From NCBI GenBank assembly GCA_019057635.1, contig DXJL01000022.1, positions 1 through 11,443 of the forward strand: a stretch of 11,443 nt of DNA, given 5' to 3'. This stretch comes from Candidatus Heimdallarchaeota archaeon. GTDB lineage: Archaea > Asgardarchaeota > Heimdallarchaeia > Hodarchaeales > Hodarchaeaceae. Positions within the stretch are counted from its first letter, which is position 1; each line of letters starts with the position of its first letter. Position numbers and translations under genes: made by a program. Shown in pieces: positions 8,781 through 10,550 of this stretch. The notes under the pieces are model-generated. The model searched no databases. It was given only the letters and a program-made list of their open reading frames with translations, and was not told the DNA's origin.

Positions 8781-10550
8781 TTGAATCGATCTCTTAGAAG
8801 TGGTATACCCTTGAAAACCTCAAATAACATACCAGATAAACCAGAAAAGGATGAATTTGGACTTGATTTTATCCGAAAGATAATTGTTGAGGATATAAGA
8901 ACTAATAAAAATGAAGGTCGAGTCCATACGCGTTTTCCTCCTGAACCAAATGGTTGGATGCACATTGGACACGCTATGGCTATCTATTTAAGCTATAGTG
9001 TCGCTCAAGAATATAATGGCCTTTTTAACTTAAGGTTTGACGATACCGATCCTTCCAAAGAAAGTATGGACTATGTAGAGGCAATTAAAGAGGATGTTCA
9101 ATGGTTAGGGGCTGAATGGGAGGATCGATTATACTTCGCTTCAGATTATTTTGAGAAACTGTATGAATTTGCAGTTGCACTGATTAAGGCTGGTAAAGCG
9201 TTCATCTGTGATTTGAGTGTTGAGGAGATAAGAGAACAAAGAGGAACTCTAACAGAACCAGGAGTAAACAGTCCTTACCGAAATAGATCAGCTGAAGAAA
9301 ACTTTGATTTATTTAAGCGGATGCGTGAAGGTGAATTTGAGGATGGTTCGAAAGTCCTACGCGCTAAAATTGATATGACTTCTCCAAATCTTCTAATGCG
9401 TGATCCGATCATGTACCGGATCAAAAGGGTAAGTCATTATAGAACTGGAACAGAGTGGATAATTTACCCTAGTTATGATTTTACTCATGGGGAATCTGAT
9501 GCAATTGAGGGAATAACTCATTCTCTCTGTTCACTAGAGTTTGAAACCCATAGGCCTTTATATGACTGGTTTATAGATGAATTGCTAGCATTAGGAACAT
9601 TAAAACATAAACCTCGGCAAATTGAATTTTCTCGCTTGAATGTAACATATACTATAACGAGTAAACGTAGATTACTAGAATTAGTTAAGGGAGAATATGT
9701 TTCTGGATGGGATGATCCACGAATGCCAACAATAGCTGGGATGCGGAAACGAGGATTCCCAGCAAGTGCGATTAGAACTTTTCTTGGTAGAGTGGGTGTT
9801 ACAAAGAGAGAAAAAAATATCGATGTTGGTTTATTGGAAGCTTGCGTGCGTGATGAATTAGATAAGGAAGCTAATCGTGTATTGGCTGTCTTAAATCCCT
9901 TACGAGTTGTTATTACGAACTATCCAGAAGACCAAGTAGAACATCTAGAAATACCAAATCATCCAAAAGATGAATCTAGAGGTACCCGTAAAGTACCGTT
10001 TTCACGAGTGCTTTATATAGAGCAAGAAGATTTTATGGAAGACCCTCCTAAAAAATTCTATCGCTTAACGCCGGGTAGAGAGGTTCGATTACGGAATGCA
10101 TACTTTATTACATGTACTGATGTCAAGAAAGATGAGTCTGGGAAAATACTTGAAGTTCATTGTACATATGATCCCAACACAAGAGGAGGATCATCTCCAG
10201 ATGGGAGAAAAGTAAAAGCAACCATACATTGGCTTTCCCGAGATCATGCATTGAAAGCGGAAATTCGCTTATACGATCGATTATTCAATCGAAAAGATCC
10301 CTCAGGTTTACCTGATTATAATTCTGATTCGTTGAAATCGATAACTGGATATGTAGAACCCAGTTTAAAAGAAGCTAAACCAGCTACCCACTATCAATTT
10401 GAACGAGTAGGATATTTCTTTACTGATCCAGAGGAATTTACCAAGAAAAAACTAGTTATCAACCGGACGATTACATTACGTGATACTTGGGCAAGAATCA
10501 AGAAACAACTTCCTCAACCAAAGAAAAAGAAGCAGAAAAAAAAGAAATAA
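8781..10550 (+). CDS. glnS: Glutamine--tRNA ligase (GlnRS), bacterial type
   Basis: [12 protein letters not shown]2-[108 protein letters not shown] and NRTITLRD are all colinear with E. coli GlnS. The start is uncertain (TTG 8781 or TTG 8811). Confidence 0.96.

Follow-up and report, generated by a model that had tools for sequence, protein, structure and literature searches.

Reviews published between 2010 and 2022, in the passages that treat the subject, describe all archaea as lacking glutaminyl-tRNA synthetase (GlnRS) (PMC9499178, PMC2978374, PMC3439900). According to the relevant section of one of them, no archaeon had acquired the enzyme, and the peculiar archaeal tRNA-Gln was thought to be the barrier (PMC2978374); this view of archaeal tRNA-Gln has served for 25 years to explain the absence of GlnRS (sections of PMC2978374 and PMC9499178). 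As outlined in parts of this literature, archaeal tRNA-Gln carries A73 and an A1:U72 base pair, bacterial tRNA-Gln carries G73, and the archaeal amidotransferase GatDE recognizes the D-loop and A1:U72 (PMC9499178); the glutamine identity set of Escherichia coli comprises the anticodon, base pairs 1-72 and 3-70, the discriminator, and 10-25 (PMC9976931). Here we analyze a glnS gene and two linked tRNA-Gln genes on contig C166 of an archaeal genome assembly from the order Hodarchaeales. The whole contig, 11,443 bases long, was analyzed and is called the window. Judged from its sequence, the lineage-wide, intact GlnRS of Hodarchaeales is a variant of a known system, and one that bears on the long-standing hypothesis just described. 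We consider it probable that the locus is a direct-glutaminylation module, consisting of a GlnRS of bacterial origin and linked tRNAs retuned to it, in a lineage that also kept the old route through a glutamyl-tRNA synthetase (GluRS) of the non-discriminating kind and GatDE.

The initial annotation described an intact class I synthetase of 589 amino acids (aa) that has the glutamine pocket of E. coli GlnRS and beta-barrel anticodon-domain motifs and that carries neither a YqeY appendage nor a eukaryotic N-terminal domain, and our results agree with it in each respect. The glnS gene lies at 8781..10550 on the forward strand (+), where an open reading frame (ORF) of 589 codons runs from TTG at 8781 with no internal stops. 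Recorded gene calls use the following TTG (8811), giving 579 aa, and no ATG comes before residue 60, as read from the translation. Pfam places a class I E/Q catalytic domain at residues 48-361 and both beta-barrel anticodon-binding domains, PF03950 at 364-464 and PF20974 at 481-549; motifs of the anticodon domains, including QFERVGYF, are found in the translation. The NCBIfam glnS model TIGR00440 matches at 692.3 bits (cut-off 425.8) over positions 1-523 of its 524. Among the NCBIfam models, that of a GlnRS/YqeY fusion, NF011291, scores highest (830 bits); its match spans profile positions 12-574 of 769, and the protein ends at residue 589. Given this match range, and with no further domain from Pfam, a C-terminal YqeY/GatB-like domain is absent, and the C-terminus is a Lys-rich tail (residues ~575-589). 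Public records name these proteins "glutamine--tRNA ligase/YqeY domain fusion protein", which is, on the predicted domains, a misleading name for the window protein because its YqeY part does not fit. The eukaryotic N-terminal domains PF04558 and PF04557, which are present on the eukaryotic rows of our alignment, were not found in the window protein by Pfam.

Residue equivalents were mapped by hand in an alignment to the 553-residue E. coli chain, with an offset of 21 past one gap. All six E. coli residues that we take to have roles in the glutamine pocket are kept: R30 as R51, D66 as D87, Y211 as Y232, C229 as C250 (within HSLCSLEF), F233 as F254, and Q255 as Q280. The HIGH motif (E. coli 40-43) is at 61-64, E. 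coli L136 is L157, and the KMSKS-like motif is ITSKR at 292-296, compared with VMSKR in E. coli and VTSKR in Pseudomonas aeruginosa. In the alignment used for our trees, the C229 position is Cys in 38/38 Asgard, 41/41 bacterial, and 15/15 eukaryotic GlnRS rows and Arg in 8/8 archaeal GluRS rows; the Q255 position is Gln in all 38 Asgard and all 41 bacterial rows and Val in 14/15 eukaryotic rows. A further position varies by group. E. coli Asp235, which we take to be the reader of G3:C70 in tRNA-Gln, is Asp in 28/41 bacterial rows, Thr or Ser in 12/12 rows from the window's genus (Thr in the window protein), and Val or Ile in 11/12 rows from two other families of the class, here f3 and f4.

The window protein is thus predicted to be an intact GlnRS of the bacterial type. 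We rejected its assignment as an archaeal non-discriminating GluRS: the archaeal gltX model TIGR00463 scores 335.4 bits, under its cut-off of 401.75 and over profile positions 88-515 only, the pocket has Cys and not Arg, and the true GluRS lies on contig C179. An assignment as a eukaryotic GlnRS was likewise rejected, with PF04558 and PF04557 not found by Pfam and a 100/100 branch (see below) separating the protein from the 15 eukaryotic rows.

Among solved structures, the window protein scores 678 bits against P. aeruginosa GlnRS, 655 against E. coli GlnRS, 515 against Deinococcus radiodurans GlnRS, 427 and 413 against the human and yeast enzymes, ~252 against eukaryotic GluRS, and 181 against archaeal GluRS 3AII. 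It shares domain order, length, pocket, the L136 equivalent, and HIGH with E. coli GlnS (PDB 1GTR/1QTQ) and the P. aeruginosa enzyme (5BNZ). Unlike these bacterial GlnRSs, it has Thr at the Asp235 position and a Lys-rich C-terminal tail, and its host is an archaeon that keeps GatDE. D. radiodurans GlnRS with its C-terminal YqeY domain (PDB 2HZ7) is also a GlnRS that occurs beside an amidotransferase pathway, and the fusion model NF011291 is the top model here; some relatives of the window enzyme resemble it further in carrying an appended tRNA-binding helper. The window protein differs from 2HZ7 in lacking YqeY and in matching it less well than it matches the E. coli enzyme. With eukaryotic GlnRS (human 4YE6/4R3Z, yeast 4H3S), it shares the catalytic core and the Cys at the C229 position, but the scores are only 413-427 bits, the eukaryotic N-terminal domains were not found by Pfam, and the Q255 position holds Gln, not Val.

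The two linked tRNA-Gln genes, which do not appear in the initial annotation, are the most informative part of the locus. Detected with ARAGORN 540-730 bases downstream of glnS and convergent with it, they are tRNA-Gln(CUG), 72 nucleotides (nt) with CCA not encoded (11092..11163, -), and tRNA-Gln(UUG), 72 nt plus an encoded CCA (11205..11279, -). Both have A1:U72, G2:C71, C3:G70, G10, U35, G36, A37, and G73. They carry part of the bacterial identity set (G73, 1-72, 3-70, G10, U35, and G36): G73, G10, U35, and G36 are present, as is G2:C71, and the partner tRNAs of bacterial GlnRS have these five features too; the weak 1:72 pair is kept, but in the form A1:U72, and 3:70 is C:G, not G:C. Unlike in the bacterial system, the tRNAs have A1:U72 and C3:G70 and their genes lie directly beside the gene of the enzyme. 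Bacterial tRNA-Gln genes in bacterial glnS loci have U1:A72, G2:C71, G3:C70, and G73 in 9/9 cases; therefore, with U1:A72 and G3:C70 in all nine, the window tRNAs are not bacterial imports. As read from these positions, the pair is an archaeal tRNA-Gln body, similar to the remaining tRNA-Gln genes of the lineage, with the bacterial discriminator G73.

To place this pair among its relatives, a covariance model was built from 18 tRNA-Gln genes and searched in 41 genomes of the class, which gave 93 matches in 37 genomes (E <= 1e-12); these were aligned to the model and read by position. A CUG and UUG pair with G73 and A37 is present in each of the 12 GlnRS-bearing genomes of the window's genus. 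The pair directly adjoins glnS, in convergent orientation, in 11/12, whereas that of G015 lies at a distance of 117 kb. Each of the 12 carries in addition one or two A73 tRNA-Gln-like genes elsewhere; those of the unlinked A73 genes that have a CUG or UUG anticodon have G37, most with an intron at 37/38 or in the T-loop. Among 10 genomes of the genus without a GlnRS match, 7 have only A73 genes, 2 have no gene, and G021 has one G73 gene; glnS of G021 is probably unassembled, its G73 gene being at the very start of a contig. G73 occurs in 0/19 genomes of other families. Families f2 and f5, which have no GlnRS, have only A73/G37 tRNA-Gln, and families f3 and f4, which have GlnRS, have A73 on all tRNA-Gln genes, with A37 variants often near glnS.

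These observations suggest the following scheme. An ancestor within Heimdallarchaeia most likely acquired GlnRS from bacteria. The enzyme would activate glutamine and charge the linked CUG and UUG tRNA-Gln, in which changes from archaeal A73 to G73 and from G37 to A37 would have fitted the tRNAs to the imported enzyme; on the enzyme side, Thr at the Asp235 position would match the archaeal C3:G70. The old route of non-discriminating GluRS and GatDE would have been kept, presumably serving its own A73/G37 tRNA set in sister species. GatD is over its cut-off in 36/41 genomes and GatE in 37/41, GlnRS-bearing genomes included. Because GatDE is kept and a second tRNA set exists, we infer that Gln-tRNA-Gln is made by two routes in parallel. 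The earlier proposal that this archaeon acquired direct glutaminylation thus stands insofar as a bacterial-type GlnRS gene is intact in an archaeon, but GatDE has not been replaced and is still present.

Partial parallels exist elsewhere. Helicobacter pylori GluRS2 and its tRNA-Gln are likewise a synthetase coevolving with its tRNA, and paired PylRS/tRNA-Pyl systems, in which the discriminator (G73 or A73) keeps the pairs distinct, likewise form two parallel pairs per cell (parts of PMC9976931 and PMC9499178). Unlike here, those cases involve other enzymes and amino acids; in Hodarchaeales both routes would end in Gln-tRNA-Gln, and the separation between them would be one of tRNA sets.

Several observations weigh against a retuned module. 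G73 is not needed by every archaeal GlnRS, since f3 and f4 keep A73. The acceptor stems do not match the E. coli elements, with A1:U72 in place of U1:A72 and C3:G70 in place of G3:C70. The value of A37 as a bacterial mark is weakened, because only 3/9 bacterial tRNA-Gln genes have it. No ordinary A73 tRNA-Gln(CUG/UUG) was found in the window's own genome, only a CUA variant (the assembly being 91.6% complete), and with only this CUA-type A73 gene the second route cannot be shown for the window's genome itself. Finally, no RNA run carrying the locus was found among the runs listed.

The first of these points leads to an alternative that we regard as somewhat unlikely. GlnRS and GluRS/GatDE could act redundantly on one pool comprising every tRNA-Gln. 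No partition would then exist between G73 and A73 tRNAs, and the linked genes would be no more than a duplicate that lacks introns and is highly expressed. Such a pool would agree with f3 and f4 having GlnRS yet only A73 tRNA-Gln, with A1:U72, the GatDE mark, on both sets, and with the retention of GatDE everywhere. It does not agree as well with the clean difference in discriminator and position 37 between linked and unlinked sets in all 12 GlnRS-bearing genomes of the genus, with the keeping of both isoacceptors twice as full sets, or with the added N-terminal YQEY domain of the f3/f4 enzymes, which the enzyme of the window's genus does not have.

A more radical possibility is that the gene is intact but is no housekeeping GlnRS, being instead a relic, a regulator, or a paralogue for another substrate, and that Gln-tRNA is made only by GluRS/GatDE. 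Retention of GatDE and GluRS, the TTG start codon, and the lack of an RNA run with the locus among the runs listed would fit. We nevertheless hold this to be very improbable: the pocket and catalytic motifs are conserved in 38/38 Asgard rows, the gene is kept across three families, its linkage with two G73 tRNA-Gln genes is tight and conserved, and the window's genome yielded no ordinary A73 tRNA-Gln(CUG/UUG).

The f3 and f4 enzymes suggest how a GlnRS might work with A73 tRNAs. They are 640-653 aa long and have an extra N-terminal stretch of ~85 residues (for example L217:8398-10353 (-), L229:3683-5605 (+), L219, L220-L223, and L226-L228). This stretch has no Pfam match, but it aligns to residues 3-71, the YQEY domain, of the archaeal non-discriminating GluRS 3AII (E 7.5e-10), the match on which the link to GluRS is based; BLASTP of the stretch against the GluRS of the window's genome was not significant. 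The YQEY-type domain is thus N-terminal and apparently of archaeal GluRS origin (compare the relevant part of PMC2978374), and that of D. radiodurans is C-terminal. The added domain may be these enzymes' own way of binding A73 tRNA. If so, the sequences suggest two different solutions by which Heimdallarchaeia overcame the tRNA barrier. A dedicated pair of tRNAs would have taken G73 in the window's genus, with an enzyme that has no added domain and only a Lys-rich tail; in f3 and f4, the tRNAs would have kept A73 and the enzyme would have gained the tRNA-binding helper domain of the host GluRS.

Two further groups of sequences touch on these enzymes and tRNAs. In one f3 genus, tRNA-Gln-like genes near glnS (G032:C72:6538-6609, G036:C173:20164-20235, and G040:C30:9307-9378, from L187, L193, and L199) have six letters aligned in the anticodon loop (TTTAGG or TTTCGG), and the anticodon is not readable with confidence. 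Separately, metagenomic GlnRS proteins of 691-708 aa that are 63-65% identical to the window's (P0067, P0069, P0080, P0087, P0092, P0096, P0109, and P0114) carry a C-terminal PF01588 tRNA-binding domain, as checked on P0067 (residues 611-700).

If this scheme is correct, the lineage crossed the supposed tRNA-Gln barrier, and the barrier hypothesis becomes directly testable. The locus also offers natural, possibly orthogonal, glutamine synthetase/tRNA pairs. Moreover, the archaea closest to eukaryotes would hold both Gln-tRNA routes at once, a state often assumed for the proto-eukaryote, although this parallel is limited by the Asgard GlnRS being of the bacterial and not the eukaryotic line.

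The host had been taken for an archaeon, apparently Asgard-like, and we find the same. The assembly has 3.19 Mb in 214 contigs and is estimated to be 91.6% complete and 3.24% contaminated. The search of the genome for gatD, gatE, and GluRS that had been proposed found all three over curated cut-offs on contigs other than the window: gatD at 474 bits (cut-off 324), gatE at 334 (cut-off 319.6), and archaeal GluRS at 501 (cut-off 401.8). The nearest named homologues of the window GlnRS, at 70-86% identity, are labeled Candidatus Hodarchaeales, Hodarchaeota, Heimdallarchaeota, or Promethearchaeota; bacteria appear among the names only from ~64-65% identity downward.

GlnRS is over the cut-off in 24/41 genomes of the class, including the single-contig genomes G010, G015, G028, and G038, and in 33/251 sampled genomes of the Asgard phylum. 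By family, these are f1 (9/16), f3 (19/26), and f4 (4/5), plus the window's own genome. GlnRS was not found in 203 genomes of 25 other Asgard families (sampled and often incomplete), so that 3/28 families searched have it. Because 24 of 41 relatives carry the gene, four single-contig genomes among them, it is not contamination.

The composition of the contig agrees. Among 47 contigs of 8-16 kb, C166 is the third closest to the genome mean in tetranucleotide make-up, and its G+C content is 35.2%, compared with 36.2 +/- 0.9%. Window positions 5500-9340, which take in a PAS-sensor gene, the spacer, and the first part of glnS, are bridged by a 4,012-base Logan contig of run X1. As this run may be the source sample, the contig does not count as independent evidence. 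The closest relative, G002, is collinear only over 8672-11441 (96.7% identity), and therefore the conserved block consists of glnS and the tRNA genes.

Some points favor the view that C166 is bacterial DNA mis-binned with an archaeon, or that a join near 8200-8780 makes it a chimera: the contig is short (11.4 kb), bin contamination is estimated at 3.24%, 79/80 best-match loci in genome contigs have bacterial titles, and there is no collinearity with the contig of the closest relative upstream of 8672. This possibility is nonetheless hardly credible, given the presence of GlnRS in 24/41 genomes of the class, the Asgard labels on homologues at 70-86% identity, the genome-typical composition, the archaeal bodies of the adjoining tRNAs, and the Logan contig, even if the latter comes from the source sample. 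We therefore rejected contamination and chimerism: the contig is not bacterial and, to the extent that this could be tested, not a chimera either, in line with the archaeal origin assumed in the initial annotation.

A 2.1-kb contig titled uncultured Methanomassiliicoccales archaeon (L093) holds a GlnRS at 3-1481 (56% identity) and, directly after it at 1517-1589, an archaeal-type tRNA-Gln(CUG) with A1:U72, G37, and A73. It represents either another GlnRS-bearing archaeal lineage or a mis-binned Asgard contig, and it is labeled bacterial in our trees.

For the phylogeny, we used 107 rows: 38 Asgard, 41 labeled bacterial (including L093), 15 eukaryotic, 5 from giant viruses, and 8 archaeal GluRS as outgroup. 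Eukaryotic rows were reached through a search with a giant-virus GlnRS among longer proteins. L073 was left out (35 stops in its joined match), and X replaced the one stop that each of L025, L068, and L094 contained. A quick tree of the 107 rows (564 columns, LG+C20, SH-aLRT support only) was followed by a careful maximum-likelihood tree of 45 rows hand-picked from the 107, with 17 Asgard and 24 bacterial rows and 200 bootstrap trees. In the quick tree, support is 99 for eukaryotes, 99 for giant viruses, and 100 for Bacteria plus Asgard; in the careful tree, Bacteria plus Asgard is split from eukaryotes at 100/100. The window protein thus branches with bacterial GlnRS, not GluRS, in both trees, which bears out the initial assignment, and we hold firmly that it belongs to the bacterial and not the eukaryotic GlnRS line. 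A bearing on the origin of GlnRS had also been suggested. Because a fully supported branch places the window enzyme with the bacteria and apart from eukaryotic GlnRS, the window enzyme says little about the origin of its eukaryotic counterpart.

Both trees place the Asgard rows in two clades inside the bacterial rows, and in the careful tree these clades, one of the window's genus and its kin and the other of f3 plus f4, are fully supported. Neither a single Asgard clade nor a single bacterial clade occurs in any of the 200 bootstrap trees of 45 rows. Branches inside the Bacteria plus Asgard group are very short (0.015-0.07). When the 17 Asgard rows were held together, the log-likelihood (lnL) was 38.1 better than that of the quick tree (p-AU 0.941) and, by arithmetic across runs, ~0.4 below that of the careful tree; one transfer into Asgard cannot be told apart from two by these trees. 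Holding the 24 bacterial rows as one clade was 23.8 lnL worse and was not rejected (p-AU 0.237), and the bacterial rows are the best matches to the query, a biased sample; both points tell against a direction of transfer from bacteria. Transfer from bacteria into Heimdallarchaeia, as first proposed, is therefore the best reading of the trees and is held with moderate confidence: the placement of Asgard rows inside bacteria favors it, and the unrejected bacterial clade leaves it short of proof.

The same facts leave room for an improbable alternative, that Asgard GlnRS is an old lineage sister to all bacterial GlnRS and not an import. In that case, a Heimdall-like or proto-eukaryotic line might have been the source of the bacterial enzyme, or a single donor might have passed it on to both groups. 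The unrejected 24-row bacterial clade, the very short branches within Bacteria plus Asgard, and the skew of the bacterial sample toward near relatives of the query speak for it. The 107-row and 45-row trees, both with Asgard rows inside bacteria, the absence of a bacterial clade from the 200 bootstrap trees, the finding of GlnRS in only 3/28 Asgard families, and the features of the bacterial type (Gln at the Q255 position, and a Pfam search in which eukaryotic N-terminal domains were not found) speak for import from bacteria.

The archaeal GluRS genes of the class also split into very different types, scoring 293-317 as opposed to 198-206 bits to the glnS model; examples are G010:C1:489047-490486, G012:C7, and G031:C47 as against G000:C179, where G000 is the window's genome. 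The GluRS of G000 and G001 is on a branch of length 2.8, apart from that of G010 and G012 of the same genus.

In part of the window's genus, the A73 tRNA itself differs. The only A73 tRNA-Gln-like gene found in G000 (contig C20, 11132-11240 (-), 71.8 bits) has a 36-base intron and the anticodon loop UUCUAUA, that is, anticodon CUA and U37. The gene, which ARAGORN assigns to tRNA-Pyl(cta), has counterparts that read alike in G002, G020, G018, G004, and G005 (L139, L163, L160, L143, and L144). These CUA tRNAs, conserved across six species of the genus, show compensating anticodon-stem changes, and other species have CUG/G37 at that gene. GatE is diverged in G000 (C183:34050-35372, -), G002, G018, G004, G020, G005, and G006, scoring 333-352 bits versus 533-558 in the rest of the genus, and in several of these genomes the match ends early in the profile. 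G019 has both kinds of GatE, and in f4 the gatD/gatE pair occurs twice per genome.

Two results led us to reject a general sense meaning of UAG in the window's genome. In-frame continuation of at least 100 codons past the stop, after stretches of at least 150 codons, was found for 55/1150 TAA, 29/547 TAG, and 32/686 TGA stops, and when the 29 TAG cases were read with TAG as Gln, a Pfam domain crossed the TAG in 0/29; all looked like neighboring genes. TAG is an ordinary stop codon in this genome. A conjecture that we consider unlikely is that GlnRS serves the G73/A37 pair only and GluRS/GatDE the A73/G37 tRNAs only, as two insulated systems, and that the spare A73 tRNA became CUA in the window's subclade, where with a diverged GatE it might rarely or conditionally read UAG as Gln or Glu. 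The change would fall in G000, G002, G020, G018, G004, and G005, after GlnRS took over CAA and CAG. If true, this would show how a charging route that has become redundant can turn to a new codon, in the archaea most closely related to eukaryotes.

In relatives, in-frame stops also occur inside matches of otherwise full length: a GluRS-like gene (G025:C9:94926-96440, 1 TAG) and gatE in G039:C291:37-1923 (1 TAG) and G023:C655:1812-3746 (1 TAG and 1 TAA). These could reflect sequencing errors, pseudogenes, or recoding.

The host lineage is held to be the archaeal group closest to eukaryotes in the pertinent part of a preprint (10.1101/2024.07.04.601786), which mentions GlnRS in passing, as a neighbor of cox genes in Hodarchaeales and Kariarchaeaceae. 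By Pfam, we found no cox genes among 17 flanking ORFs in ~8-10 kb on each side of glnS in the single-contig genomes G010 (L216) and G028 (L217), nor in the window. Neighbors of glnS in G010 and G028 include genes for an M24 peptidase, a nitronate monooxygenase-like protein, a histidine kinase, a diacylglycerol-kinase-like protein, and an IS605-type transposase. In the literature searched (main texts), we came across no earlier account of tRNAs retuned in this way, of a doubled tRNA set, or of a fusion with YQEY.

Upstream of glnS is an AT-rich spacer of 583 bases (8198..8780) that holds the edge of the conserved block (8672) and presumably the glnS promoter. Between glnS and the tRNA genes, a small ORF of 132 aa (10588..10986, -) encodes a PNPOx-like protein (pyridoxamine 5'-phosphate oxidase fold). 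It is confined to the group of G000, G002, and G020, and elsewhere in the genus the tRNAs start ~20-70 bases past glnS; it is probably outside the glnS-tRNA system. A 616-aa multi-PAS-domain protein in which Pfam recognizes no output domain is encoded at 6347-8197 (-). The other window genes, none of them linked to translation, encode a 370-aa protein with two winged-helix (AsnC/MarR-type) domains (21-1133, -), and, in the rest of the window (1892-4287 (-), 4307-4699 (-), and 5575-6339 (+)), an ABC-2 permease and ATPase, a small zinc-ribbon protein, and a bPH_2 (bacterial PH) protein.

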